The notes under the pieces were generated by a model. The model was not told the origin of the DNA. It did no database searches and worked only from the letters and a program-made list of their open reading frames with translations. Both the position numbers and the translations under genes were made by a program. From Photobacterium aphoticum (GTDB lineage Bacteria; Pseudomonadota; Gammaproteobacteria; Enterobacterales; Vibrionaceae): a stretch of DNA of 24,000 bases. The DNA is taken from positions 14,592-38,591 of the forward strand of contig NZ_LDOV01000053.1 in assembly GCF_001029435.1 (NCBI RefSeq). Direction: 5' to 3'. Shown piece by piece: positions 36 through 21,795 of this stretch (position 1 is its first letter; every line of letters begins with the position of its first letter).

Positions 36-85
36 CATACCATCAAAAGCGCGACATCAAAGACGCACTGATTGGTTTAGCTCGA

Positions 86-661
86 TTACACGTTAACACC
101 GTGCTCACGTGCCAATGCCGCTAGGCCGCCAGCAAAACCTTGACCCACAGCTTTGAATTTCCAATCACCATTGTGACGGTATAGCTCACCAAAGATCATT
201 GCCGTTTCAACAGACGCATCTTCAGACAAGTCAAAACGTGCGATTTCAGCGTTGTTATCGCTATTCACAATACGCATGTACGCGTTAGACACCTGACCGA
301 AGTTCTGGCTACGCACGTCAGCATCATGAATGGTCACGGCAAACACCAGTTTCTTCACTTCTGCTGGCACTTTATCAAAGCTGACAGTCACAGTTTCATC
401 ATCGCCGTCACCTTCGCCGGTGCGGTTGTCACCGTTGTGAACCACTGAGCCACATGCACTGGTGGTGTTGTTGAAGAAGATGAAGCTTGTATCAGACAAA
501 ACTTTGTTGTCATCGCCAACCATAAATACAGAACAGTCCAAGTCAAACTCTTGACCATCTGTTGCGCGTGCATCCCAGCCTAGGCCAGACAGTGCCACTT
601 TCATGGTTGGGGCTTCTTTGGTAAGAGAGACGTTACCGCCTTTAACTAATGAAACAGCCAT
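86..661 (-). CDS. terE: TerD-family tellurium/stress resistance protein TerE (191 aa)
   Basis: The protein begins [13 protein letters not shown] and carries DGQEFDLD and [13 protein letters not shown] acidic Ca-site motifs plus C-terminal [19 protein letters not shown]. The length matches TerE. I chose the ATG at 659-661 rather than the ORF-track start at 706, because the N-terminus then matches TerD/TerE. It is the last gene of the terZABCDE order. Confidence 0.93.
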
Positions 662-761
662 GTTCATTCCTTTTTGATGACAATTAAAATCAAAATACGT
701 GTACATTCACACGCAATGCGGGGAAGTTGCCCTCCCCCTGTTTGTTACTCATTAACAGCAA

Positions 762-1340
762 TTAAGACGCGTTGATGCCATATTGGGCACACATCGCGCC
801 AAGGCCGCCGCTGTAGCCTTGACCTACTGCACGGAATTTCCACTCACCATTGTGACGGTATAACTCACCAAAAATCATAGCGGTTTCCGTTGAGGCATCT
901 TCCGTCAAATCGTAACGCGCCACTTCCACATTGGTGTCTTCATTCACAATACGCATGAACGCATTGCTTACCTGACCAAAGCTCTGACGGCGCGTCATCG
1001 CATCGTGGATAGTGACAGTGAAAGCAATCTTCGTCACATCCGTGGGTACGTTATTCAACTCCACGATCAAGGACTCATCATCCCCGTCGCCTTCACCGGT
1101 ACGGTTATCACCGGTATGCACAACCGAGCCATCCAGAGAACGCAGGTTGTTGTAAAAAATGAAATCATTGTCGTGACGGACGCGGCCCATGTCTGACAAC
1201 AGGAACGCTGAACCATCAAGGTCGAAGTCCTGTCCGTCTGTGGCGCGTGTATCCCAACCCAGCCCCACGCGAACACGCACAAGGGATGGATCGGTTTTAC
1301 TCAGTGAAACATTACCGCCTTTAGATAATGAAACGCCCAT
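762..1340 (-). CDS. terD: Tellurium/stress resistance protein TerD (192 aa)
   Basis: [16 protein letters not shown]-terminus, [21 protein letters not shown] and [19 protein letters not shown]. The length is that of TerD. An AAGGAAG RBS lies 6 nt upstream of the ATG. Confidence 0.95.
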
Positions 1341-1372
1341 TCATGTCTTCCTTTTCATTTATCAACTTGGCA

Positions 1373-2419
1373 TTAAGCCGGTTTAGAGGTCTGTTCTTCG
1401 TCTTTCTTCTCAGGGAAGAGATAGCTGGCCAGTACACCCGCAACCAACACCGTGATCACCACAATCAAGCTGGTGGTAGCAGAAATGGTGTATTCATGGC
1501 CGAACAAATGAGAGGTCGCATTGAGGCCCAACTTACCTGCAATGAAGAACAACAATGCAATCACCGCTTTTTCAAGGTGGATCAGGTACTGCTTCATGGC
1601 TTCGAGAACGAAGTACAAGGTACGCAAACCCAAAATGGCAAACATCATGGCGCTGTAGACAATCAATGGCTCACGGCTGACCGCGATCACGGCCGGTACC
1701 GAGTCAAACGCAAACATCACGTCAGACAATTCCACCACCGCCAGACACAACAACAATGGCGTTGCGTAATATTTCGCCTTGCTAGTGCGGCCAACGGTCA
1801 CGTCTGCGTTCTCTGGTTTTGCCAGTTCTTCATCAACGTCTTTTTGTTTGATCAGGAAGTTATTACCTTTGATCTTTGGCCATACCGGAAACAGACGCTT
1901 CACTGCGCGGTACGCCAAATGCTGGGAATAATCTTCCACTTCGTCTTCCTGATCACCGCTGCGCAGCATCATCACCGCCGTCCAGGCCACCATCAGGGCA
2001 AAGACCACTTCCACCCAAGGGCCCAGCGCCAGCAAGCTGGTACCGATAGCGACAAAGATCCCCCGGAACACGATGGCACCGATGATCCCCCAGTAGAGGA
2101 TGCGGTGGCGGTACTTGTCAGGGACAGAGAACCAGGTAAAGATCGCCATGATCACAAACAAGTTATCGACGGAGAGCACTTTCTCCAGGGCATAACCGGT
2201 CACAAAGAGACTAGCAACTTCTAGTCCGTGGTGTAGATACAAGAACCCGGCGAAAGCAAAGGCCACAACAATCCAGAAAATGGACCACATAATGGCGCTT
2301 TTCAGCGGGATCACCTTGTCGTCACGGTGCATGTATAAATCGATTAAAATCGCACCGACTGACAAGCATACAAAGACCAATACGGTCTCAATGGGAAAAC
2401 CGATATGCGTTGATTCCAT
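1373..2419 (-). CDS. terC: Integral membrane protein TerC (348 aa)
   Basis: Multi-pass hydrophobic protein with the duplicated TerC-family signatures LSVDNLFVIMAIF and ELSDVMFAFDSVPAV. Position between terB and terD, and a length close to E. coli TerC. Confidence 0.95.
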   Translation of the reverse strand: MESTHIGFPIETVLVFVCLSVGAILIDLYMHRDDKVIPLKSAIMWSIFWIVVAFAFAGFLYLHHGLEVASLFVTGYALEKVLSVDNLFVIMAIFTWFSVPDKYRHRILYWGIIGAIVFRGIFVAIGTSLLALGPWVEVVFALMVAWTAVMMLRSGDQEDEVEDYSQHLAYRAVKRLFPVWPKIKGNNFLIKQKDVDEELAKPENADVTVGRTSKAKYYATPLLLCLAVVELSDVMFAFDSVPAVIAVSREPLIVYSAMMFAILGLRTLYFVLEAMKQYLIHLEKAVIALLFFIAGKLGLNATSHLFGHEYTISATTSLIVVITVLVAGVLASYLFPEKKDEEQTSKPA

Positions 2420-2435
2420 GTTTATAACTACCTAA

Positions 2436-2891
2436 TTACAGATGATATTCATCTGTTGAGAATCCCAATGCCTGGCAAATTTCACGGGCGATGGCTTTTT
2501 CCTGATCATCAAAATCGCCGTCACTTTTTGCCACCGCAATGCCGACACGTAGCGCTAACTGCGCCGCATCCGGCTGATCTTTCAAGCGCATCACATATTT
2601 CATCGCTTCGCCTTTACCGATATCGACATCAAATTCAAAACCGGTTGCCAGCTCATTGAAGAAAGCGATGACTTCTTGCACATCAAACACAGCTAAGTCT
2701 TTTGACTGCTGAATAAAGCCCACCATTTTTTGCTTTTCTTCTGCGCTCGCTCCGTTCGATGCCATGCTGATGCACGCACAGACCGCCACAGTCCCTTCCA
2801 TGAATTTGCGATTTTTAAAACGGCTCACTTGGCTCGCTAATTCACTCTGACCCGCAGAGACTGCATTTTTAATCTTGTTAAAAATTGACAT
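2436..2891 (-). CDS. terB: Tellurite resistance protein TerB (151 aa)
   Basis: MSIFNKIKNAV... through ...KSDGDFDDQEKAIAREICQALGF is typical of the TerB helical domain. The ATG at 2889-2891 is preceded by AAGGAAAT. The ORF-track start at 2939 would overlap the terA 3' end. Confidence 0.93.
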   Translation of the reverse strand: MSIFNKIKNAVSAGQSELASQVSRFKNRKFMEGTVAVCACISMASNGASAEEKQKMVGFIQQSKDLAVFDVQEVIAFFNELATGFEFDVDIGKGEAMKYVMRLKDQPDAAQLALRVGIAVAKSDGDFDDQEKAIAREICQALGFSTDEYHL

Positions 2892-2901
2892 AGTTATTTC
2901 C

Positions 2902-4110
2902 TTATTTGCTGCCGGCACGCCACCGGAAACCCCAACCAAATGCGCTGTCTAGCTCTTCGTGTCCGGAGAAATAACGGTCTAAACGCTGCACCGTAATTAC
3001 CCCGTTATCGTTGATCAATCGCGCAACGGCACACATACACTTGGTACGTCCACCCTCGGTCAAGCGAGTTTCTACTGGCGGTTCGTTTGGCACGGTGATC
3101 GTCACCGCACCATCGGTTTTGGTCCAATCCGGTACGCCCTGATAAATGAAGGCAAACACCAGCACTTCCGAAATGTGTTTCCAGTTGTCCCCGTTAATGT
3201 GTAGCCATTCACCGCTCTGAGAGGCCCCGGTGCGATCATCTTCCAGCAAGCGCACAAACGGCGGCCTGTTGAGATCACCAAACCGATTACCCAACGCCTG
3301 CACAATGTCGGCACTGCCATCTTTCATCCGCACAAACGCCCCGAGATCCAAATCCACTCCAGACGAACCAAAAATCCCGCTCAAGAAACCTTGGCCATTG
3401 TGGGTACCACGGTGCCAATTCAAATTCACTTTGATCAGCCCGTAATCCTGGCGTTTGGTTAAATTGACACTCGGATTCTGCTTGGTCAGCGATATCTTGC
3501 TCAGGTTAATCGTTGGCGATGGTGCCTGACCGGCCTGAGCCGCTGTTGATGAAGAAGGCACAGGAGAACCAACAGGCGGTGTCGTTGATGGCGGCGGCGA
3601 GGCAGGCGTTTGATCTTCATCCACCACCACACCATAAAACTCCGCCAGCGGTTTCAAACCACCGTTAAAGCCCTGTGCGACAAAGCGGAATTTCCACTGA
3701 CCATTGCGGCGATAACATTCACCCAAGATCAGCGCCCCTTCCGTTCTGGCTTGCATCTCGACATTCGCCTGAATATGAACCTGTCCAGCCTGCTCGATTT
3801 GAATCGTGATATGGCCCAAGGTAGACACCGTCTGGCCCGGATTGCAGGTACAGGTAAACGCCACCTTCTCGATATTGGCCGGCAGGCGATTCACATTCAG
3901 GGAGTACGAGGTATTCGTGCCTTCACTACGCAGCACCACGGCCTGCTCACGACACGCACGTTGACCGTAAAAGATCATGTCTGCGTCATGGGCCACTTTG
4001 CCATTGGCCTGCAAACGAAACGCAGACACATCGACGGGCTTTCCGGTAAGCACCCGCACGGTCAACTCACCGGCCGGAACCGGTGAATTTCCACCCGCTA
4101 TCAGTAACAT
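2902..4110 (-). CDS. terA: TerA, a two-TerD-fold-domain protein (402 aa)
   Basis: The N-terminal TerD-like domain ends ECYRRNGQWKFRFVAQGF. A Pro/Ser/Thr-rich linker (aa ~164-200, nt 3511-3621) follows. The C-terminal TerD-like domain has VDLDLG and a degenerate acidic loop, EDDRTGASQSGEW. Position between terZ and terB. Confidence 0.9.
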   Translation of the reverse strand: MLLIAGGNSPVPAGELTVRVLTGKPVDVSAFRLQANGKVAHDADMIFYGQRACREQAVVLRSEGTNTSYSLNVNRLPANIEKVAFTCTCNPGQTVSTLGHITIQIEQAGQVHIQANVEMQARTEGALILGECYRRNGQWKFRFVAQGFNGGLKPLAEFYGVVVDEDQTPASPPPSTTPPVGSPVPSSSTAAQAGQAPSPTINLSKISLTKQNPSVNLTKRQDYGLIKVNLNWHRGTHNGQGFLSGIFGSSGVDLDLGAFVRMKDGSADIVQALGNRFGDLNRPPFVRLLEDDRTGASQSGEWLHINGDNWKHISEVLVFAFIYQGVPDWTKTDGAVTITVPNEPPVETRLTEGGRTKCMCAVARLINDNGVITVQRLDRYFSGHEELDSAFGWGFRWRAGSK

Positions 4111-4116
4111 GACACG

Positions 4117-4707
4117 TTACACCAGCGCGTTTTTGATCACCGGGATCATGTCTTCCACGGTACGGCCCTGACAAGGCAGCCCGTGCGCCGTGAAGGACCA
4201 GTCACCGCCCTGGCGGGCCAGTGACGCAATCAAAATACCGGAATGTGGACCTTGTTCATTCAGTTTGTAATGACACACTTCCTGCTGACCGCTTGTCGTA
4301 TTCACGACACGACAGAACGCATTTTCGACTTCATTGAAAGTCTGCCCACGGAAGCTGTTTACCGTCACGGCTAAAAATGCCACGTTGCTTGGCAAAGCAT
4401 TCAGGTTCACGTCGATCACTTCATCATCGCCGTCCCCTTCGCCCGTCATGTTATCGCCACGGTGACGCACGGAACCACAACGGGAATTCAGTTGCTGGAA
4501 CCATACAAGATCAATCGGGTTGCCTTGCGCATCAAACAATACGCATGACGCATCCAAATCAATAGAATCTGATCCGCCAAACAGGCCGCCAAAAAAGCCG
4601 GCTTTCTTTTTAATCGGATCCCAACCAAGACCAATAGCGATCGTCGATAACGCAGAACCTGCTGTTTTCGCTAAAGAAACAGATTGATTTTTACTTAATG
4701 AAACCAA
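4117..4707 (-). CDS. terZ: TerD-family protein TerZ (196 aa), TTG start
   Basis: (M)VSLSKNQSVSLAK N-terminus, SIDLDASC and [13 protein letters not shown]. The TTG at 4705-4707 lies 6 nt after TAAGGAG. The 251-aa ORF-track version extends 55 codons into the AT-rich intergenic region with no homology-like sequence. Confidence 0.9.
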   Translation of the reverse strand: MVSLSKNQSVSLAKTAGSALSTIAIGLGWDPIKKKAGFFGGLFGGSDSIDLDASCVLFDAQGNPIDLVWFQQLNSRCGSVRHRGDNMTGEGDGDDEVIDVNLNALPSNVAFLAVTVNSFRGQTFNEVENAFCRVVNTTSGQQEVCHYKLNEQGPHSGILIASLARQGGDWSFTAHGLPCQGRTVEDMIPVIKNALV

Positions 4708-4986
4708 GTGAATCTCCTTATTACGGGTGTAATAACGTCCATTCCATATATCAATAAAAATATCAACAAAGGGTATATTGCTGATAGCTTTAGATAAAAC
4801 ACTTAGCCACGTATACAACCTATGAGGATGTGCCTTTATAGATGTATTCGGTGAGTAAACACGATAATACATTAAATTTTATCTTGTGTTTCCCATTCTA
4901 TTAATGGCTGGAACAAATTTGTGATTATTCACGCAAATAAACTGTATTCGATGTGACAACCGCACCGTTGTATTGATAATCGCCTT
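4708..4986. promoter_or_regulatory. Divergent promoter/control region between terZABCDE and the PRTase-HAD-StiP-lyase operon
   Basis: A 279-bp AT-rich non-coding gap between two divergently oriented operon starts. It contains the near-palindrome GTGATTATTCAC (4921-4932) and a TATCAA-N6-TATCAA direct repeat. I cannot place -10/-35 elements confidently. Confidence 0.5.
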
Positions 4987-6153
4987 ATGAATATTTCGCC
5001 CTCTGTCACGACTGAATTATCCACTATGATGAATAAAAGAAATCAACCGCTTTCGACGGGCACCATTGCCATGCAGATTGCCAAAGGTAAATGGCAAGAT
5101 ACTGATTTATTTGAGTTTGCAGAAAGAAAAAACCCGAAGCGCGCGTTCTTATTTGTCAGCAAAATTCTGGGTAAACATATCCCTGTTTCTCCTCGTAAAA
5201 TGCGATCCGCTTATCAGGATTTAGCACAACAAATACCTGAAAATATTCCCGAGCCCATCTTATTTATCGGCATGGCAGAAACCGCCGTGGGTTTAGCGGG
5301 CGGAATATATGAAGAAGCGAGAAAGAAATACCCAAACAGTTTGTTATTAACCACTACACGCCACCCGATTGACAGTGAATTATTGTGTGAATTTAAAGAA
5401 GAACATTCGCATGCTACTGACCATTTGATTTATATTCCTGACGGTGAAAACAAAATATCTTTTTGCACAAAATTTCGGACGCTGATCTTAATTGATGATG
5501 AATCCACAACAGGTCGAACATTTCATAATTTAATTTCATCTTTATTTCATGCCGGTCTTCGTGGCATTTCACAAATATTCACTGTGACTCTGACTGATTG
5601 GTCGGGCGATGTCTTGTCCCACCAGCATGATATGCCTATTACCTCCTTGGCATTAATGCGAGGCCAATGGGAATGGCACCCTGATCCCTCCGCGCCACTG
5701 CCGACCATGCCCAATGTGAATGTGACAGAAAAAGGCGCAGCCATGCTCTCAAGTCGTCAGGATTGGGGACGACGGGGGATGGCAGCCTATGACGGTACAG
5801 GTTGGCTAAACCGTTACAGTGCCTCGCCTGGCGAGCGCATTTTAGTGCTGGGCACCGGGGAATTCCTGTATCCGCCCTTTTTACTGGCCGAACAGTTAGA
5901 GCAGCAAGGGGCAGAGGTGCGCTTTAGCTCCACCACACGTTCCCCGATTGCCGAAGGGTTAGCGATTCAGTCCAGTCTCGCCTTTACCGACAACTATGGC
6001 CTGAATATCCCTAACTACTGTTACAACGTTGCCCATCAAACGTTTGATCGGATCATCGTCTGTACCGAAACCCGCGATTGCGATCTGGATCCGGCGTTCC
6101 TCGCCGCACTCGCCAATGTCGCTACCACCGTGGAGGTCGCCGTGTATGACTAA
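4987..6153 (+). CDS. ter-associated phosphoribosyltransferase-domain protein (PRTase + C-terminal TRSP-like region)
   Basis: Classical type I PRPP-binding loop LILIDDESTTGRTF. The N-terminal ERKNPKRAFLFVSKILGKHIPV block is as I recall it from ter-linked PRTase proteins. It is divergent from terZ. The start is uncertain (4987, or the ATGs near 5026), and neither has a strong RBS. Confidence 0.8.
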   Translation: MNISPSVTTELSTMMNKRNQPLSTGTIAMQIAKGKWQDTDLFEFAERKNPKRAFLFVSKILGKHIPVSPRKMRSAYQDLAQQIPENIPEPILFIGMAETAVGLAGGIYEEARKKYPNSLLLTTTRHPIDSELLCEFKEEHSHATDHLIYIPDGENKISFCTKFRTLILIDDESTTGRTFHNLISSLFHAGLRGISQIFTVTLTDWSGDVLSHQHDMPITSLALMRGQWEWHPDPSAPLPTMPNVNVTEKGAAMLSSRQDWGRRGMAAYDGTGWLNRYSASPGERILVLGTGEFLYPPFLLAEQLEQQGAEVRFSSTTRSPIAEGLAIQSSLAFTDNYGLNIPNYCYNVAHQTFDRIIVCTETRDCDLDPAFLAALANVATTVEVAVYD

Positions 6154-6955
6154 GCCCCTGTTTTTGGTTGATCTGGACGACAACCTATTCCAAACCCAAC
6201 GCAAGATGACGCAGAAAGGGCAAACACCGGCTGAAACCGCCGCCCTTGATCGCGCCCTGAAACCTCGCAGTTTTTTCTCACAAGAACAGGCTAACTTTGT
6301 GCATTGGCTGTTGGAACATGCCGATGTGATTCCGGTAACAGCGCGAGGCACCGAAGAAACCGCCCGCGTAACCATTCCCTTTACCTCATGGAAAGTGATG
6401 ACCCATGGTGCGGTGATCACTATGCCGGATGATCAGCCAGATCCTCAATGGCAAGATCAGATCCAAACCGCACTGATCCCTTATCAGCAGCAACTACACG
6501 ATCGTCAAGCCGCGCTGACCGCTGCGTTTAACGCCGCCAATATTGACGCATGGGCGCGCATTAACTTCGAATACGACGGTCAGGCCATCTACTTAGTGGC
6601 TAAACACACCGACAGCAGCAAGATTGACGAATTGTATGCGGTGGCGGATCAGGTCGACCGTGAACTGGGCACCGACGGCTTTTACATTCACCGTAACGAC
6701 AACAATATCGCCTGGCTGCCGCACTGCATTGAAAAAGGCAAAGCCACCCGTTACCTCATCGACAAACTGCGTGCCGACGAGCCGCACAAACCCATTATCG
6801 GATTAGGCGACAGCTTAAGTGACATGACTTTCTTACGTCAGTGCTCCTGGTTTGGCATGCCGCCACACAGCCAGTTGTCCAAACCGCTGTTGGATTTTAT
6901 CGATGCCGAACACGGCTCAACTCAACCCACAACGACCAAGTGGAATAATGTATGA
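6146..6955 (+). CDS. HAD-superfamily phosphatase (269 aa)
   Basis: HAD motif I LVDLDDNLF (DxD nucleophile pair), motif II VIPVTARG and motif IV GLGDSLSDMTF. The ATG at 6146 overlaps the upstream stop (ATGACTAA). The ORF-track start at 6029 lies inside the previous gene. Confidence 0.85.
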   Translation: MTKPLFLVDLDDNLFQTQRKMTQKGQTPAETAALDRALKPRSFFSQEQANFVHWLLEHADVIPVTARGTEETARVTIPFTSWKVMTHGAVITMPDDQPDPQWQDQIQTALIPYQQQLHDRQAALTAAFNAANIDAWARINFEYDGQAIYLVAKHTDSSKIDELYAVADQVDRELGTDGFYIHRNDNNIAWLPHCIEKGKATRYLIDKLRADEPHKPIIGLGDSLSDMTFLRQCSWFGMPPHSQLSKPLLDFIDAEHGSTQPTTTKWNNV

Positions 6956-8031
6956 CGACGTTTTCCGGTGCTTATTCACCCAACGATATCACCTTTCTGC
7001 TTACACCTATCGACATGGTCATGACCTCGGTGGAAGAAAAGGAACGGTTAATCCAATCTGGTCAGGCACATTACTCAGACATGCTCAGCCAAGAGCCGGC
7101 ACCGTCTGACGAACATTTGTCGATTTATGCTCAAGCCTTAGCCGACGGCGAACAGCGTCTGGCGAAAGAAGTGATGGTACTTGCCCTACAACTGCGCGAA
7201 CACTTTGCCGATAAACCGGTGGTGCTGACCAGCTTGGTCCGTGCGGGGGTGCCTTTAGGGGTCATGCTGCACCGTGCGTTGCAACAACTGGGACACCCAT
7301 CTTTTCACTATGGGATCAGCATTATTCGTGACCGGGGCATTGATGACAAAGCCCTGTCTGAAATAGAAGCCAAACACGGTACAGACAGCATTGTGTTTGT
7401 CGATGGCTGGACCGGAAAAGGAGCGATCACTCGTCAGCTCACCGCTTCTTTATCACAGCGTAAAGGCTATCCCGCTCAACCGCGCTTAGTGGTGTTGGCG
7501 GACCCGTGTGGTATGGCATGGATGAGCGCATCTGATGAAGACTGGTTGATCCCGTTTGGTATTCTCGGCGCGCCGGTCTCCGGTTTAGTGTCTCGCTCGG
7601 TATGGGCCAGTGAGGATTATCACGGCTGCGTCATTTGCGATCATCTGGCTGACTATGAATGCAGTCGCGCACTGGTGGATCGCATCAGCGCATTGCAACG
7701 CAGCTTACACTCACAGGCTATCGACACCCTTACATGGCAAACACCGTCGCACGACCACCACACCACTTTGCAAACCCTCTCACAGCAAGTGTTAGACGAT
7801 TTGCAACAGGCTTATCAGGTCGACCATATCAATCGCATTAAGCCGGGCATTGCCGAAGCCACCCGCGCTGTATTACGCCGGGTGCCAGATCATGTGCTGG
7901 TGCGAGACAAGCAAGATCCGGATGTCAAACTGCTGGTGCATTTAGCCGAGAAAAAGCACATCACCGTGATTGAAGCCGGTTCACGCCTTGGCCAGTACCG
8001 CGCCACGACAATCATCAAGAAGGTATTATGA
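6952..8031 (+). CDS. StiP-family ('cysteine protease StiP') PRTase-like protein with C-terminal PELOTA-like region
   Basis: PRTase-like loop IVFVDGWTGKGAI. The size (359 aa) and position in a ter-linked operon match the family as I recall it. ATGA start/stop overlap with the HAD gene. The PELOTA-like assignment of the C-terminus comes from family knowledge, not from a motif I can point to. Confidence 0.7.
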   Translation: MTTFSGAYSPNDITFLLTPIDMVMTSVEEKERLIQSGQAHYSDMLSQEPAPSDEHLSIYAQALADGEQRLAKEVMVLALQLREHFADKPVVLTSLVRAGVPLGVMLHRALQQLGHPSFHYGISIIRDRGIDDKALSEIEAKHGTDSIVFVDGWTGKGAITRQLTASLSQRKGYPAQPRLVVLADPCGMAWMSASDEDWLIPFGILGAPVSGLVSRSVWASEDYHGCVICDHLADYECSRALVDRISALQRSLHSQAIDTLTWQTPSHDHHTTLQTLSQQVLDDLQQAYQVDHINRIKPGIAEATRAVLRRVPDHVLVRDKQDPDVKLLVHLAEKKHITVIEAGSRLGQYRATTIIKKVL

Positions 8032-8960
8032 TGAAGCACTCCCCTTACGCGTTAGGCGCCACCTTGTACATGCCCGCGACACGTGATGACATTGTTCAGG
8101 TCGCGCTGCGCAATAAGATCCCGCATCTGCGTTCGATGGTGATTTGCCTTGAAGATGCGGTGGCCGATCACGAGGTTGAACAAGCACTCGCTAACTTAAT
8201 CACGATCACCCGCCAGTTAGCGACACACCGTCGTGATCATGAACAACCGATCATTTTTATCCGCCCAAGAGATTTAGACATGGCCGCCCACATTGTGGCG
8301 CACTATGACTTAACCGGTATTGATGGGTTTGTGTTCCCGAAATTTACCTTAGCAACCCTGCCCGAATGGGAAGCGATCACCGCCTCTACCCATTTGATGT
8401 GGATGCCGACGTTAGAAACCCAAGAGGTGTTTGACGGGCAAGCCATGCAGCAATTAGCCAATGCCTTGCATGCTAGCCCGATGCGGGATCGGATCATTGC
8501 ACTGCGTATTGGCGGTAACGATTTGATGAGTATTTTAGGAATCCGCCGCTCTCGCCATGCGACCATCTATGAAGGGCCGCTCAATTACGTGATGAAAATG
8601 CTCACCTGCACCTTTGGGGCCAAAGGCTTTGCCCTCACCTCGCCGGTGTTTGAACTGATCGATAACGTGGAGCTGCTCGAACAAGAACTGCAATTGGATT
8701 TGATCCACGGCTTAGTCGGCAAAACCGCCATTCACCCAAGCCAAATTGCCTGCATTCATGAAGCCTGGATGGTTGACCCGTCAGAATATGAAGACGCAAT
8801 CCGCATCATCAACAGCACACAAGCGGTGTACCAGCATGGCGGCGCGATGTGTGAGCCCGCGACGCATCGGCAATGGGCGAAAAATATTTTAGAGCGCCGT
8901 CAGTTGTTTGGCTTGCGCACACCCGAAGCGGCCAATGCCAAAGAGTTTGTTCATCTATAA
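8028..8960 (+). CDS. HpcH/HpaI aldolase / citrate-lyase beta (CitE)-like TIM-barrel C-C bond lyase
   Basis: CitE-type signature MVICLEDAVAD near the N-terminus, RIGGNDL, and GKTAIHPSQI (similar to the CitE 'K..IHP.Q' block). ATGA overlap with the preceding gene. Confidence 0.8.
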   Translation: MMKHSPYALGATLYMPATRDDIVQVALRNKIPHLRSMVICLEDAVADHEVEQALANLITITRQLATHRRDHEQPIIFIRPRDLDMAAHIVAHYDLTGIDGFVFPKFTLATLPEWEAITASTHLMWMPTLETQEVFDGQAMQQLANALHASPMRDRIIALRIGGNDLMSILGIRRSRHATIYEGPLNYVMKMLTCTFGAKGFALTSPVFELIDNVELLEQELQLDLIHGLVGKTAIHPSQIACIHEAWMVDPSEYEDAIRIINSTQAVYQHGGAMCEPATHRQWAKNILERRQLFGLRTPEAANAKEFVHL

Positions 8961-8990
8961 TCAACCTTTCTCATGCCAACAGCTAATGCA

Positions 8991-9037
8991 GAGTCAGTGC
9001 TTTCTCCCTCTCTTGAAACACTGGCTCTTTTTCTTTT
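8991..9037 (+). terminator. Intrinsic terminator of the four-gene operon
   Basis: GAGTCAGTG(c)TTTC ... GAAACACTGGCTC stem (9+4 bp, one bulge, one G-U pair) followed by TTTTTCTTTT, starting 30 nt after the stop at 8960. Confidence 0.7.
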
Positions 9038-9207
9038 GTGGCAAATGATTAACCCCATTGATTCAATCAACAATCACTCCATCGAAAAAACTGACCAAGA
9101 TGGTCAATGTCATGCGGTTTTCTGTGGTGTGTCATACGCCTACACTCACAGACAGAGACGATAGAACAAGCTCACAAACAGAAAATCGACCAGCAGGAGA
9201 CAGCATT

Positions 9208-9903
9208 ATGATCACACTCCGTCATGCCAACGAACGCGGCCAAGCAGACTTCGGCTGGCTCCAGACGCACCATTCTTTTTCTTTTGGGGAGTATTACGAT
9301 CCTGCTCACATGGGCTTTTCCGCCCTGCGTGTGATCAATGATGACATCGTTCAACCCGGCGCAGGGTTTGATACCCACGGCCATAAAGACATGGAAATCA
9401 TCACCTTTGTCCTCAAGGGCAGCATTGCCCACAAAGACAGCGAAGGGAATGTGGAAACCCTTCCAGCAGGAGAATTCCAACTGATGTCAGCTGGCCGAGG
9501 GATCGCCCACAGTGAGTTCAACCCATCAAGTACCGAGACGTTGCATTTGCTGCAGATTTGGATCCAACCCAATACCATCGGCGGCCAACCGGGTTACCAA
9601 CAAAAAGCCTTTGCCGTGCAAACCGGATTAACGCCAATCGCAACGCCAGACGGTCAACAAGGCACACTACACATCAAGCAAGATGCGACACTGTATCAAC
9701 TAACGCTGCCGCCTCAGACTGCACACACCCTGTCTGTTACAGCTGCTCGTCAGGTGTACATTCATCAGGTGGAAGGAGCATTAACGGTGAATGATGTGGC
9801 GTTATTGGCAGGTGATGGGGCGAAAATCCGTGATGAAAACACGCTGACACTGCGCAATACCGGTGACAGCACCGTCACGGCGCTGGTGTTTGATTTGCCG
9901 TAA
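9208..9903 (+). CDS. yhhW: Pirin-family protein (YhhW-like quercetinase-type cupin, 231 aa)
   Basis: MITLRHANERGQADFGWLQTHHSFSFGEYYDPAHMGFSALRVINDD and THGHKDMEIITFVLKG align closely with E. coli YhhW as I recall it, at the same length. An AGGAGA RBS lies 7 nt upstream of the ATG at 9208. The ORF-track start at 9058 adds 50 non-homologous codons. Confidence 0.88.
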   Translation: MITLRHANERGQADFGWLQTHHSFSFGEYYDPAHMGFSALRVINDDIVQPGAGFDTHGHKDMEIITFVLKGSIAHKDSEGNVETLPAGEFQLMSAGRGIAHSEFNPSSTETLHLLQIWIQPNTIGGQPGYQQKAFAVQTGLTPIATPDGQQGTLHIKQDATLYQLTLPPQTAHTLSVTAARQVYIHQVEGALTVNDVALLAGDGAKIRDENTLTLRNTGDSTVTALVFDLP

Positions 9904-9932
9904 TGGATACGGATTCAATTTCACAATGTGTC

Positions 9933-9973
9933 AAAAAATCCCTGTTGTTCAGGCAGTAACTGAACAACAGGGA
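9933..9973 (-). terminator. Intrinsic terminator for ygjH (may also stop pirin transcription)
   Basis: 14-bp perfect stem TCCCTGTTGTTCAG / CTGAACAACAGGGA with a 7-nt loop. The A6 run at 9933-9938 gives a U-tract on the minus strand; there is no U-tract on the plus strand. Confidence 0.8.
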
Positions 9974-10027
9974 AAGCAGGTTGTATGAATATAATAGTGA
10001 ATATAAAGATTGATGAAACAGTCGCCG

Positions 10028-10398
<371 letters not shown>

Positions 10399-10666
10399 AA
10401 ATTTTATATTACCGTATCAGTCATCACCATAAACAAAAATGCACTTATCTCCATTTCAAGATCCCGATCACGTCTCTCTTTCACCAAACATCATGCCAAT
10501 CATTGCGTCCAAAAGGGTATTTTCGCCCCTATCATCAGGGAACTAGCCCCCAAATGGGGTGATTTTGTCCGCAAAAGTCGCCCATTTACATACACAAACA
10601 CACAATTTTACTAAAAGTTTGTGCATCGATTCGTTGCTGTTTAGAATGGAGATTGATAAAAGCTGA

Positions 10667-11704
<1,038 letters not shown>

Positions 11705-11736
11705 TCCCTCATTCTGTTTCAGCCCCTCCTCTTTAT

Positions 11737-11763
11737 AAAGCACTGCTCGCAGTGCTTTTTTTT
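11737..11763 (+). terminator. Intrinsic terminator after ebgR
   Basis: AAAGCACTG-ctcg-CAGTGCTTT stem-loop running into a run of 8 T, starting 33 nt after the ebgR stop. Confidence 0.85.
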
Positions 11764-11887
11764 ATAAATCCGCACGCATAACCACCACCTCGACAGCATT
11801 TTCAACAACTCCAGCCTGCCTCGCGCGTTTTTCATACCGCGATCACAACTTGCGTGCTTCATCCCCAGATAAACGTGACCAAGTTAA

Positions 11888-11930
11888 AGTAAAACATTTT
11901 CACTGATTTATTTTAGTAAAAGTTTTACTA
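11888..11930. promoter_or_regulatory. Paired operator-like sites upstream of ebgA (probable EbgR operators)
   Basis: TAGTAAAA-G-TTTTACTA is a perfect 8+1+8 palindrome at 11914-11930. An imperfect copy, AGTAAAACATTTTCACT, lies at 11888-11904. Both are about 95-135 nt upstream of the ebgA start. Confidence 0.6.
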
Positions 11931-11931
11931 A

Positions 11932-15594
<3,663 letters not shown>

Positions 15595-15630
15595 TCACTT
15601 TCATCACAAGTAAGGCTTTAACCCAAAGAA

Positions 15631-15662
15631 GAAGGACGGCAGTCGCTGGCTGCCAGTCCTTC
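15631..15662 (+). other. Stable RNA hairpin without U-tract in the ebgC-transporter spacer
   Basis: GAAGGAC-GGCAG-tcgctgg-CTGCC-(A)-GTCCTTC gives 12 bp with one bulge. It is followed by AAATCT, so it is not a canonical terminator. Confidence 0.5.
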
Positions 15663-15814
15663 AAATCTGGTAGTCCTTCAAAACATGAACACCTGTAACA
15701 CCTGTTTTTGACAGATAGAGACAACGTCAAAAACACAAGAAACACCGTAATACCAAGCGCTCTAAGAAATAAGCAATAAGAACAAAGCAATAACAACACC
15801 TACATATAACGTGA

Positions 15815-17275
<1,461 letters not shown>

Positions 17276-17311
17276 CCCATCACACAAAACGGAACAAAAA
17301 ATCATACCCGA

Positions 17312-17339
17312 GCAGAGAGAACGTGAGCGTTCTCTCTGC
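17312..17339 (+). other. Perfect 12-bp hairpin between the two transporter genes (no U-tract)
   Basis: GCAGAGAGAACG-tgag-CGTTCTCTCTGC, 37 nt after the stop of copy 1 and followed by ACATACAT. It may be a processing or stability element or a weak terminator. Confidence 0.55.
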
Positions 17340-17456
17340 ACATACATAACAAAAAGGTTATATCCAAGCCCTCTCTTATCACGAAGAGTACCAAACAGCG
17401 TGAATCAGAGGGCTTCGCTATCACCACGCAACACGCTAAATCGATAAAAGTAATAA

Positions 17457-18905
<1,449 letters not shown>

Positions 18906-18936
18906 TCACTCAACACAAAGCACAATCCAAATACTC

Positions 18937-18962
18937 GCGAGCGTCTTGGCGCTCGCTTTTTT
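18937..18962 (+). terminator. Intrinsic terminator after transporter copy 2
   Basis: GCGAGCG-tcttgg-CGCTCGC followed by TTTTTT, starting 32 nt after the stop. Confidence 0.8.
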
Positions 18963-19199
18963 ATTCCAATCACAATCTCATCATGGCTTCACCGCCTTCC
19001 CCTTTCAGCGTTCACTCTCACGCTTAGGATCCTGCCATTTTCTGTTTCGCAAAAAGCAAACCGCACATTTTCAAGCTGCATGTCGCAATATCAAGAAGCG
19101 GTCGCAATAGTAATAATAGTATCTATAAATCAAACAATTAATTATTGGCCTCAATATTGCTTATCTACTGTATGTCATGTCAGGCTAGGTAGGGAAACG

Positions 19200-19928
19200 A
19201 TGATGAACAAGGCCTTTTTACTTTATCTCTTCGCCGTATTACTGGGTTGTTCTAGTGCACAAGCCTCGCTGCTGTTTACGATTGAAGATGCCTACATTGA
19301 AGAATCGCAAATTTCCGATCCCAAGCAGGTCGAAACTTTTGATGATTGGACGACAGGGACATTCAACGGCACGATTACCGCCGAATTTGGGGAATACGAA
19401 GTGCTCAACGGCGTGCCTCAAATTAAAGCGGCCAATGTGTATGGTGGCGCAGGCGGGGAGGGTAATTATCTTTTTGTGAGCCCTCAGCAAAACACGCAGG
19501 TGTTACTGACTTTTAATGATCCTGTCGGTTATTTCGGGTTTTGGTGGAGTGCTGGGGATGCCGGTAACAAACTGCAGGTAGAAACCTTTAAGACGACCTA
19601 TGAATTTACCACTGCAGATGTATTCCAAGGTGATGCCCTGACCATGAATCACTACGGCAACACAAACTTCAGCGGCGGAAATGGCGGCGAACCTTATGGT
19701 TTCTTGAACTTGTATGCGACATCGGATGAATACAAAATCAAGTCGATCAAATTTTATGGCTCTAACTTTGAAAGTGACAACCACACCGTCGCTGGTGCAT
19801 TGCAAAACCCAACGGGTACTGTGATTGTGACCGTGTCCGAACCCGCTCACCTCGGCGCATTGGCGCTGGCACTGCTGCCCTTGGTGCATGCACGTCGCAC
19901 ACGCATGACCAACACGATTCGCGCATGA
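19200..19928 (+). CDS. Secreted protein with a PEP-CTERM-like C-terminal sorting signal (242 aa)
   Basis: N-terminal signal peptide MMNKAFLLYLFAVLLGCSSAQA, which contains both an LLGC lipobox-like site and an AQA|S SPase I site. The C-terminus VSEP-AHLGALALALLPLVHA-RRTR fits the P-E-P / hydrophobic helix / basic cluster pattern. The internal YGGAGGEGNY and YFGFWWSAGDAGN blocks resemble exosortase-dependent surface proteins as I recall them. The ATG at 19200 follows AGGTAGGGAAA; the ORF-track start at 19080 adds 40 codons. Confidence 0.65.
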   Translation: MMNKAFLLYLFAVLLGCSSAQASLLFTIEDAYIEESQISDPKQVETFDDWTTGTFNGTITAEFGEYEVLNGVPQIKAANVYGGAGGEGNYLFVSPQQNTQVLLTFNDPVGYFGFWWSAGDAGNKLQVETFKTTYEFTTADVFQGDALTMNHYGNTNFSGGNGGEPYGFLNLYATSDEYKIKSIKFYGSNFESDNHTVAGALQNPTGTVIVTVSEPAHLGALALALLPLVHARRTRMTNTIRA

Positions 19929-19998
19929 CAATCCTATCCGTACACCCAACCACCAAATGACGCGGAAAGGGTGGTGTCTTCGTCACCAATTTCTCGTC

Positions 19999-20036
19999 AA
20001 AAAAGCGCGAAGAGCAGGATGCCCTTCGCGCTTTTC
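19999..20036. terminator. Bidirectional intrinsic terminator between convergent genes
   Basis: AAAAA-AGCGCGAAG-(11-nt loop)-CTTCGCGCT-TTTC: a 9-bp GC-rich stem flanked by an A-run and a T-run. It lies between the stops at 19928 (+) and 20071 (-). Confidence 0.75.
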
Positions 20037-20070
20037 TCTTTACGTTATCCAGTCACGACAATGATATGAC

Positions 20071-21504
20071 TTACACCAACGCTGCTTTCTCTGCCGCAAA
20101 TGCAGCCAGGATTTTCTCCACCGACGTCAATACATCCTCTTGGCTGGTGTGGTAATTCAGAATCGAAATCAGCATCGTTTTCAGGCCTTTATAACCGGAT
20201 GTTGATGGGTACAAATACCCTTCCTGCTGCAAGCGATGCACCACGCGTTCTGTCAGCACATCACGGGAAGCCGTATCACCCGTGCCAAATTGCACAGAGA
20301 ATCGATTCGACACGACATCATTCAATACCGTAATGCCTTCCACTTCTGCCAGTTGTGCTGCCATCAATTTGGCCAAATCTGTACAGTTATCCAAATGCGC
20401 AGCAATACCGGCTTTACCTAATGACTTAAAGGCCGCATATACCGGTACGCCACGGGCACGGCGTGATGCTGCAATACCAAAGTTAATCGCATTACGATCT
20501 GGCTTGGCCATCGCATCATTGAGGTAATCACCCATATTGTTGCCGCCCATGGCTATGGTGATCGCGGATGGATCTTTCACAATCACCATACCGCAGTCGT
20601 ACGGCATGTTGAACCACTTGTGGCCGTCAGTATCAATGGAATCGATGCGCTCGATACCTTTCAACAAATGCTTTTGTTTATCACTGGCGGCGGCCCACAG
20701 GCCAATCGCACCATCAACATGGCACCACGCATTCGGGTGTGCCGCTACGCAATCGGCAATCTCATCAAACAAATCAAACGCACCGGAATCGATACAGCCC
20801 GCTTGTGCACACACCAAGGTCGGCCCTTCACAGTTGGCCATAATGTCACGCAGTGCTTCCGGCAACATACGCAAGTTATCATCGGTCGGCACTTTAATGA
20901 TGTCGTTCAGGCCGATACCGATCATCGATAGTGCACGCTTAATGGTGGAATGGATTTGATCGCTGAGAACCACATTGATACGCGGCGCGCCGTATAAGCC
21001 TTGCGTAGCGACATCCCACCCTGCTCGTTGCAACAAGGTGTTACGGGCGGTGATCAGCCCGGTATAAATCGCTTCCTGCGCCCCAGAGGTAAAGCCCACC
21101 GCTGAACCCGGCGTTAGCCCCAACAATTCCACCATCCATTCTGCAGCGGTTTCTTCCACCACCGCCATCGCAGGGCTGGAGACATAATACGGTACGTTTT
21201 GATCCCACGCGCTCACCAACCAGTCAGCGGCAAGGGAAGCTGGCAAAGCGCCACCAATGGCATAACCGAAGAAACGCGGGCCACCTGATGCAATCAGCCC
21301 TGCATCAACGTTTTTCACCATCTCATCAATCACGGCAGCCGGATCGCTACCCTCAAGCGGCAATGGTCCTCCAAGCGCATAACGCAGTTGCTCTGACGTG
21401 GCAACCTGATCGATTTTGCGCTCAGGCAGAGATTCAATGTACGAAACGGCGTGTTCACATGAACGTTGAAGCGGGGATTGATACTGATTAAATGCGTGTC
21501 CCAT
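20071..21504 (-). CDS. PLP-dependent group II amino-acid decarboxylase (aromatic-L-amino-acid/DDC-like fold, 477 aa)
   Basis: The PLP-lysine block DTDGHKWFNMPYDCGMVIVK parallels the DDC-type NPHKW...DCS..WVK motif. GFTSGAQEA and HVDGA(I)G blocks are also present. A GGAGGA RBS lies 7 nt upstream of the ATG at 21502-21504. The substrate cannot be inferred. Confidence 0.8.
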   Translation of the reverse strand: MGHAFNQYQSPLQRSCEHAVSYIESLPERKIDQVATSEQLRYALGGPLPLEGSDPAAVIDEMVKNVDAGLIASGGPRFFGYAIGGALPASLAADWLVSAWDQNVPYYVSSPAMAVVEETAAEWMVELLGLTPGSAVGFTSGAQEAIYTGLITARNTLLQRAGWDVATQGLYGAPRINVVLSDQIHSTIKRALSMIGIGLNDIIKVPTDDNLRMLPEALRDIMANCEGPTLVCAQAGCIDSGAFDLFDEIADCVAAHPNAWCHVDGAIGLWAAASDKQKHLLKGIERIDSIDTDGHKWFNMPYDCGMVIVKDPSAITIAMGGNNMGDYLNDAMAKPDRNAINFGIAASRRARGVPVYAAFKSLGKAGIAAHLDNCTDLAKLMAAQLAEVEGITVLNDVVSNRFSVQFGTGDTASRDVLTERVVHRLQQEGYLYPSTSGYKGLKTMLISILNYHTSQEDVLTSVEKILAAFAAEKAALV

Positions 21505-21795
21505 GGGACTGTCCTCCGGTCTTTATTGATGCCTCCATCCTAAGTGCAACCGATATTAAAAATTTACCATTTCACGACATCATGAGTATTCTATCTCTTA
21601 GCCTTAACGCGTATTTACCCCTTGTCGCCATACACGCAGATATAGAAATTGTCATTACTCCACTGATCACGAAATAAGCAATTGAACACCTAATTGCAAT
21701 TTTGTGATCTTAAGCCACGGAATGTTTCGACGTCTTTTTCGTTTTCGTTTCATTGCATTACATTTCATAGCAAATCCCCCACAGAGATATTAACC

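Follow-up and report, generated by a model that had tools for sequence, protein, structure and literature searches.

The 24,000-nucleotide stretch of Photobacterium aphoticum DNA analyzed here, referred to below as the window (contig NZ_LDOV01000053.1, positions 14,592 to 38,591), carries a Ter (tellurite resistance) locus at positions 86 to 8960. We mapped the open reading frames (ORFs) of the window and searched it with Pfam profiles, using NCBIfam as a second profile set. Ten genes were confirmed, six ter genes on the minus strand and four enzyme genes on the plus strand, all of them present on the strands given in a preliminary description of this DNA. Pfam E-values range from 1e-20 to 1e-103 for nine of the ten proteins, the exception being the HAD phosphatase (family S6PP, 2e-4), and the family matches are far above chance level. 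Together they are almost certainly a canonical Ter stress-response locus in a reduced, ten-gene form, most likely located on the chromosome. Its features are as follows (PRTase, phosphoribosyltransferase).

86 to 661, minus strand: terE, TerD-domain protein of 191 residues from the most likely ATG at 661 (longest ORF to 706); Pfam TerD, 1.3e-82.
762 to 1340, minus strand: terD, TerD-domain protein of 192 residues; Pfam TerD, 2.2e-85.
1373 to 2419, minus strand: terC, TerC/Alx integral membrane protein of 348 residues; Pfam TerC, 1.4e-43.
2436 to 2891, minus strand: terB, 151 residues from the ATG at 2891 (TTG at 2939 in the ORF list); Pfam TerB, 1.1e-19.
2902 to 4110, minus strand: terA, 402 residues, two TerD-like halves with a Pro/Ser-rich linker; Pfam TerD, 1.2e-27 at residues 26 to 159.
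4117 to 4707, minus strand: terZ, TerD-domain protein of 196 residues with a TTG start (longest ORF to 4872); Pfam TerD, 9e-42.
4708 to 4986, no strand: divergent intergenic region of 279 bp, with sigma-70-like hexamers in both directions.
4987 to 6153, plus strand: Ter-linked PRTase of 388 residues; PRTase_2, 3.8e-57, and C-terminal TRSP, 9e-24.
6146 to 6955, plus strand: HAD phosphatase, type IIB-like, 269 residues from the ATG at 6146 (longest ORF from 6029); PDB entries 6D3V/6CJ0, 1.5e-39.
6952 to 8031, plus strand: StiP, PRTase-like protein of 359 residues with a PELOTA/L7Ae-like domain; Pfam StiP, 6e-89, and PELOTA_1, 7e-27.
8028 to 8960, plus strand: C-C bond lyase, TIM-barrel protein of the HpcH/CitE-like superfamily, 310 residues; Pfam C-C_Bond_Lyase, 1.3e-102.

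The ter genes are separated by gaps of 6, 10, 16, 32, and 100 nucleotides, and stop and start codons overlap at all three enzyme-side junctions; this combination of short spacers and overlapping codons fits two divergent operons. By tblastn, the gene order Z-A-B-C-D-E is colinear with that of a Klebsiella plasmid locus (L001) and of 23 enterobacterial loci. Several start codons bear on the layout and were set by comparison, in part with Photobacterium japonica (GCA_050337005.1, contig JAKJSN010000017.1, L082), the closest relative. The TerD domain of terE begins at residue 16 of the long ORF, and the P. japonica orthologue has 191 residues. The alignment of TerB with PDB entry 2JXU starts at residue 17 of the long ORF, which places the terB start at the ATG at 2891, preceded by an AAGGA ribosome-binding site, so that terA and terB do not overlap. 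An AAGGAG Shine-Dalgarno sequence lies 6 nucleotides before the terZ TTG at 4707, and TerZ of P. japonica likewise has 196 residues; with this start the intergenic region is exactly 279 bp (4708 to 4986), the length previously proposed for a control region shared by both operons. P. japonica shares the PRTase start at 4987, yet no obvious ribosome-binding site precedes it, and the intergenic length could therefore be slightly larger. The ATG of the HAD gene at 6146 overlaps the PRTase stop codon. A terminator-like hairpin with a T-run at 696 to 715 (minus strand) lies in the 100-nucleotide terD-terE spacer and may be an internal attenuator; such terminator-like sites are not commoner in the window than in shuffled sequence.

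The ter operon encodes four TerD-domain paralogues (TerZ, TerA, TerD, and TerE; Pfam TerD E-values of 1e-27 to 2e-85) together with TerB and TerC. TerD aligns over its full length with PDB entry 2KXT, deposited as 'Tellurite resistance protein' (E = 6e-99), TerB matches 2JXU with an E-value of 1.3e-61, and TerC scores 346 bits against NCBIfam TIGR03718 (TerC/Alx metal homeostasis membrane protein), for which the cut-off is 246.4. TerZ, TerD, and TerE retain the acidic motif GDN(R/M)TGEGDGDDE. The C-terminal half of TerA resembles TerD weakly (26% identity, E = 0.002), and its metal motif, EDDRTGASQSGE, is degenerate; TerA is degenerate in both of its TerD-like halves.

The four plus-strand proteins had been assigned to Ter-associated families, and the profile searches bear this out, Pfam placing three of them and the match to 6D3V/6CJ0 securing the HAD protein. 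The PRTase_2 protein carries an intact canonical phosphoribosyl pyrophosphate (PRPP) loop, LILIDDESTTGRT; no PDB relative of it was found by sequence. Pfam evidence for the HAD protein is marginal (S6PP, 21.5 bits versus a cut-off of 20.3) and is accompanied by weak NCBIfam SPP/MPGP matches; the four HAD motifs, FLVDLDDN, VTAR, a Lys, and GDSLSD, are intact. The lyase contains the sequence LEDAV and has distant matches to RipC and CitE (NCBIfam) and to acyl-CoA lyase beta and citrate lyase chains in the PDB (E of about 5e-5). PRTase_2/TRSP, HAD, StiP/PELOTA, and C-C lyase are thus all present and the ATP-grasp ligase is missing, which defines a four-enzyme sub-form; with the Klebsiella ATPgrasp_Ter protein as a tblastn query, nothing was found in the 24-kb window.

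The association of the two modules was examined by a StiP-alignment scan, taking one genome per species, which yielded 80 loci with identities of 41 to 65%; their gene content was read by tblastn with the window proteins. All four enzymes occur in 71 of the 80 loci, and 67 have one or more genes of the TerD family, the lacking loci being mostly short contigs. Sixty related loci have sufficient flanking DNA and are the basis for all counts of linkage, layout, ATP-grasp, and TerW. TerD/TerB/TerC genes lie beside the enzyme block in 57 of these 60, in Gamma-, Beta-, and Alphaproteobacteria, and they do so in at least three layouts: divergent and upstream (29 loci), co-directional and upstream (13 loci), or downstream on the same strand. 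Linkage that survives such rearrangement is a classic signature of functional coupling, and the co-conservation of Ter genes and enzyme module in related genomes is supported. Of the 60 loci, 42 have the ATP-grasp gene; its absence from the other 18 indicates that the four-enzyme form is common. Four Xenorhabdus loci (L014, L015, L016, and L020) lack both ATP-grasp and terE and have kept terW.

An alternative account would treat the plus-strand operon as an ordinary sugar-phosphate or trehalose pathway that has no relation to the adjacent terZABCDE. Among solved structures, the nearest homologue of the HAD protein is one deposited as a trehalose-6-phosphate phosphatase and assayed as such, the weak profile matches of the HAD protein are to sucrose-phosphate and mannosyl-phosphoglycerate phosphatase families, and in three loci (L034, L055, and L066, from a Paraburkholderia, a Rhizobium plasmid, and a Bradyrhizobium) ter genes are absent within 10 kb of such enzyme genes. 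Among these three, the Paraburkholderia locus has the four enzyme genes, the Bradyrhizobium locus has PRTase, HAD, and StiP, and the Rhizobium plasmid has only StiP. However, when the crystallized 'trehalose phosphatase' (6D3V/6CJ0) was placed by tblastn (99.6% identity), its gene (L083:8989-9747) proved to lie in a ter locus on the Pseudomonas aeruginosa plasmid CP109686.1, flanked by the PRTase and StiP genes. A structure of a Ter-linked HAD protein therefore already exists under another name, and this Ter context suggests that the physiological substrate of the Ter-linked HAD may be other than trehalose-6-phosphate. In addition, the linkage kept in 57 of 60 loci brings the account of two unrelated neighbours close to refutation, the Pfam PRTase_2, TRSP, C-C_Bond_Lyase, and ATPgrasp_Ter models were built on Ter association, and the operon contains no trehalose-6-phosphate synthase gene. 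We consider this account extremely improbable.

The third enzyme gene encodes StiP, which the preliminary description had called PRTase-like. We compared an AlphaFold (AF2) model of it (predicted local distance difference test score 83.6; predicted template modelling score 0.87) with the PDB by Foldseek, and the top matches were dozens of HGPRT-type PRTases (probability 1.0, E of about 3e-4, target-normalized template modelling score of about 0.5), in agreement with that term. The C-terminal domain matches L7Ae/Snu13 by fold, with a hint at the sequence level as well. Residue conservation was scored over 79 StiP orthologues, in which the PRPP-loop-like VFVDGWTGKG and SxxRAGxPxG are invariant; together with these motifs, D184, D197, SGxxSR, H119, and H224 are 98 to 100% conserved. 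No cysteine is conserved across the 79 orthologues, the best being C226 (57/79) and C186 (44/79). The predicted fold and the conserved residues support the view that StiP is PRTase-like rather than a protease, and they identify it with the 'additional PRTase' of the published model with five enzymes. Both the PRTase-like predicted fold and the absence of a conserved cysteine are at odds with the name 'cysteine protease StiP' used in databases. A reading of StiP as a zinc- or cysteine-dependent enzyme was rejected, since its H-G-C-x-x-C-D-H cluster is invariant in close relatives but is not kept family-wide; StiP and PRTase_2 were also considered as recent paralogues, and they have no sequence similarity. 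One predicted protein from an ENA contig (P0005, 613 residues) fuses HAD (PF08282) to StiP and PELOTA. Such a fusion, if natural, would support HAD-StiP coupling; otherwise it comes from a frameshift or a gene-calling error where the stop and start codons overlap.

The locus is a reduced representative of a well-known and previously predicted Ter kind, and its two-module layout is nothing special; the two-operon, bidirectional ter arrangement has already been published (Vornhagen 2021, PMC8115787), consistent with the earlier remark that this type of neighbourhood had been predicted before. The P. japonica locus occupies the same chromosomal site and agrees with the present one in all ten genes, their order, and their orientation; its TerZ, TerB, TerC, and TerD have the same lengths as those of the window, and its StiP is the best StiP match (86% identical) in the protein collection searched, where the sequence of the window itself did not turn up. 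The P. japonica contig is colinear with window positions 83 to 9033 (78.7% nucleotide identity) and 19189 to 23993 (82%), and it shares the downstream neighbours, a pyridoxal phosphate (PLP) decarboxylase gene and a gene for a large secreted protein. The classical locus of the IncHI2 R478 and Klebsiella pneumoniae pK2044 type (NZ_CP054968.1, L001) has the same divergent layout, with protein identities of 52 to 79% and DNA that is about 72% identical to the window across terB-terD, but unlike the window it has ATPgrasp_Ter before the PRTase gene, DUF4236, TerW, TerX/TerY VWA proteins, TerY-C, PP2C, and terF, and it lies on mobile elements. The absence of the ATP-grasp gene, DUF4236, terW, terF, and terXY from the window agrees with its characterization as compact. 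The possibility that the window is a copy of the mobile enterobacterial cluster was discarded, since the megablast matches in Escherichia coli genomes and plasmids were only about 72% identical, over terB-terD.

More distant relatives preserve the content of the enzyme block in other settings. The P. aeruginosa plasmid locus mentioned above has the same PRTase-HAD-StiP-lyase order linked to TerD/TerB/TerC genes, but its ter genes lie downstream on the same strand, and the locus, carried on a plasmid, also contains ATP-grasp, an additional HAD-IB gene, and insertions of IS1182. In Bacillus altitudinis 3W19 (PMC11994780), the same four enzyme families, again with no ATP-grasp, adjoin terB, three terD genes, and terC; this likeness is by gene content alone, and the locus of this Gram-positive organism differs in gene order, in its co-directional arrangement, and in having YceG and TelA/YceH.

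The divergent intergenic region has promoter-like sites on the plus strand at 4953 to 4980 (10 of 12 matches) and on the minus strand at 4904 to 4876. Consensus promoter and terminator sites are no more frequent in the window than in shuffled sequence, so we give the predicted promoters little weight. A block at about 4915 to 4960, which includes TGTGATTATTCACGCAAAT (4920 to 4938), closely precedes the predicted -35 hexamer of the enzyme operon; P. japonica shares it, and it occurs in none of the other related loci retrieved. It may be a lineage-specific operator replacing TerW control. A CRP site at 4920 to 4933 was considered and rejected; the TGTGA-N4-TCAC spacing is wrong, and the match is found only in the window and P. 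japonica.

A further form of the locus is found in Vibrionaceae islands (Vibrio owensii CP025796.1, Photobacterium leiognathi, and three metagenomic contigs; L084 to L088). It has the same compact divergent core with no leading ATP-grasp gene, and its StiP is 66 to 69% identical to that of the window. In these island loci the enzyme operon is followed by DUF4236 (except in L088) and then, on the same strand, by a gene for a Card1-like nuclease of about 390 residues that combines a CARF domain with a PD-(D/E)xK domain, and integrase genes lie near. In L088 the CARF nuclease gene directly follows the lyase gene. The positions are as follows.

L084, 12240 to 13424, strand of the enzyme operon: CARF nuclease.
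L085, 12254 to 13423, strand of the enzyme operon: CARF nuclease.
L086 and L087, 9001 to 10176, strand of the enzyme operon: CARF nuclease.
L088, 1519 to 2697, strand of the enzyme operon: CARF nuclease.

These full-length proteins match Pfam Card1_endonuc (3e-39) and the PADLOC model CARF4--CARF_PDDEXK (6e-106) and form a subgroup of their own with identities of 58 to 66%; the large VC1899-like group of Vibrio CARF proteins is 41 to 44% identical and is not Ter-linked. Neither the window nor P. japonica has the gene. A wider metagenome scan confirmed no relative, a plasmid collection gave no match, and the accessible parts of the literature naming both CARF and TerD contain no connection between them. 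CARF proteins are a family of nucleotide-ligand sensors, and the CARF neighbour fits a nucleotide-like signal, but it could also reflect a chance neighbourhood in a defence island.

These sister loci bear on the idea that Ter is an anti-phage and anti-colicin conflict system, in which the enzyme operon would make a nucleoside-like alarm on envelope attack and TerB/TerD/TerC, with the CARF nuclease of the sister loci, would be the effectors. The presence of a CARF and PD-(D/E)xK nuclease after the enzyme operon in five loci with integrases nearby is consistent with it, as are the historic phage-inhibition and colicin-resistance phenotypes, the smaller plaques formed on the wild type than on a terC mutant (PMC12054061), the description of Ter as a conflict system present in a jumbo phage (PMC7824862), and the StiP homologues in Acinetobacter phage ME3. 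However, no defence model of PADLOC-DB v2 matches any of the ten proteins, the surroundings of the locus are of housekeeping type with no mobile-element or defence genes in the 24 kb, and the reported phage effects are modest (PMC12054061); the window and P. japonica do without the CARF nuclease, which could be an unrelated passenger of a defence island. On balance we regard a dedicated conflict system as unlikely.

Anantharaman, Iyer and Aravind are said to have predicted in 2012 a Ter-linked PRTase/HAD/C-C-lyase module, and a mechanism based on a nucleoside-like product, after their proposal, is the one we tentatively favour for the locus, at well below even odds. A nucleoside-like Ter product is also predicted in PMC8115787, PMC7824862, and PMC11994780. 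In such a mechanism the PRTase would join PRPP to a base-like acceptor that the lyase makes or modifies, and the HAD phosphatase would strip the 5' phosphate to leave a nucleoside-like small molecule; StiP, as a second PRTase-like protein with a domain of RNA/ribose-phosphate-binding type, might act on or bind an intermediate. TerB and the Ca2+-binding TerD paralogues would assemble at TerC in the inner membrane, and this assembly would respond to the small molecule and/or to cations and alter ion flux or membrane state, the outcome being tolerance to tellurite, to oxidative or metal stress, to pore-forming colicins, and to some phages. Since there is no ATP-grasp ligase, the amide-linked decoration that is predicted with five enzymes should be missing from the product of the present locus. 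Insertions in ter abolish the tellurite, colicin, and phage phenotypes, and deletion of terC enlarges phage plaques (PMC12054061); a stiP mutant of Acinetobacter baylyi is tellurite-sensitive (Reichert 2013, as cited in PMC11994780). A more specific version, in which the four enzymes suffice as a minimal pathway to a dephosphorylated ribosyl (nucleoside-like) signal and TerB and the TerD paralogues at TerC sense it, joined in the sister islands by the CARF nuclease, seems to us improbable as it stands.

Several points weigh against the nucleoside-like-product mechanism. In the literature searched to mid-2026, no Ter product, substrate, trigger, or mechanism has been identified, which is what the preliminary description had stated. 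The terZ-F genes alone give E. coli K-12 tellurite resistance (PMC8115787), and terBCDEF alone gives a minimal inhibitory concentration of 2 mM (PMC11003894); the ter genes are thus sufficient, and the resistance that gave the cluster its name does not require the enzyme module. Tellurite, colicin, and phage phenotypes have been recorded for plasmid and island homologues only, and for no Photobacterium (PMC8115787, PMC12054061, PMC11003894). The lack of any PADLOC match counts here as well, as does the lack of a TerW homologue in the window, terW being present in 23 of the 60 related loci. For the individual enzymes, trehalose-6-phosphate was the assay substrate of the solved HAD homologue, described as the 'extrachromosomal TPP', and the protease label of StiP goes back to Reichert 2013, as cited in PMC11994780.

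The sufficiency of the ter genes for tellurite resistance (PMC8115787, PMC11003894) speaks instead for metal and oxidative-stress homeostasis. In that account TerC would be a cation (Mn2+, Zn2+, or Ca2+) exporter or a metal chaperone with TerB and the Ca2+-binding TerD paralogues as its cytoplasmic regulators, the tellurite, phage, and colicin effects would be by-products of envelope or metal physiology, and the enzyme operon would only tune the system. It gains from the score of TerC above the curated cut-off of the TerC/Alx 'metal homeostasis' family and from the acidic motif kept in TerZ, TerD, and TerE. Moreover, Zn, Mn, and Te induce the operon in K. pneumoniae, where terC has a part in resistance to Zn and Mn (PMC12054061), oxidative damage is reduced by ter genes (PMC11003894), and Bacillus TerC proteins metalate exoenzymes (PMC12096827). 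However, it leaves the PRTase/HAD/StiP/lyase linkage, kept through rearrangements in 57 of 60 loci, unexplained, and heterologous K. pneumoniae TerC did not act as a Zn/Mn efflux protein (PMC12054061). We hold homeostasis as the primary explanation to be doubtful, slightly more so than the nucleoside-like-product mechanism itself, and the two are compatible. Taken as a whole, identity and mechanism together, a reduced canonical Ter locus with a nucleoside-like-product mechanism is probably the best explanation of positions 86 to 8960.

The chromosomal location claimed for the locus is plausible, yet we infer it from the housekeeping-type neighbours and the synteny with P. japonica, which together point to a settled chromosomal feature of this Photobacterium lineage. 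None of the scanned window genes is of mobile-element type, and the GC content is even throughout. Searches of the 24 kb with Rfam at gathering thresholds and with ARAGORN found no tRNA genes and no Rfam RNAs; no Mn riboswitch precedes terC, and the locus is not a tRNA-flanked island. A 10-kb block downstream of the locus (9034 to 19188) encodes a pirin, a CsaA-like tRNA-binding-domain protein, a LacI-family regulator, a GH2 LacZ-like beta-galactosidase of 1051 residues, YhcH, and two APC-family permeases. P. japonica lacks this block except for a 94-bp remnant of the tRNA-binding-domain gene, which makes a deletion there likelier than an insertion in the window; no flanking repeats were found around 9034 to 19188. 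Within the block, AGTAAAACTTTTACTAAA and its complement form a perfect 18-nucleotide inverted pair (10384 to 10401 and 11912 to 11929) with a near-palindrome in each arm; one arm precedes the LacI-family gene, the other precedes the beta-galactosidase gene by about 54 nucleotides, and both are candidate operators. An ORF at 19080 to 19928 (282 residues) has no Pfam match and has a partial match in P. japonica between the ter locus and the decarboxylase gene. The PLP-dependent decarboxylase gene occupies 20071 to 21504 on the minus strand. An ORF at 21796 to 24000 runs off the window end and encodes more than 734 residues, with a signal-peptide-like N terminus and no Pfam domain; its P. japonica counterpart has 858 residues and only a sub-threshold Reprolysin_4 match near the C terminus. 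The ORF may encode an uncharacterized secreted metalloprotease.

The Ter cluster is widespread, has a diagnostic use in tellurite media, and is tied to the fitness of Klebsiella, enterohaemorrhagic E. coli, and Yersinia. The value of the present locus is that it is naturally minimal, with ten genes and without regulator, ligase, VWA, or phosphatase accessories, which makes it convenient for reconstitution and metabolomics. More useful than the locus itself are the solved HAD structure, the PRTase-like StiP, and the Ter-linked CARF nuclease, the last of which suggests a route to the product. If the minimal pathway for a dephosphorylated ribosyl signal were to prove correct, Ter would be a form of envelope immunity based on small-molecule signalling, the CARF protein would offer a biochemical handle for the product, and the window, with ten genes, no regulator, and no ligase, would be its simplest natural version.

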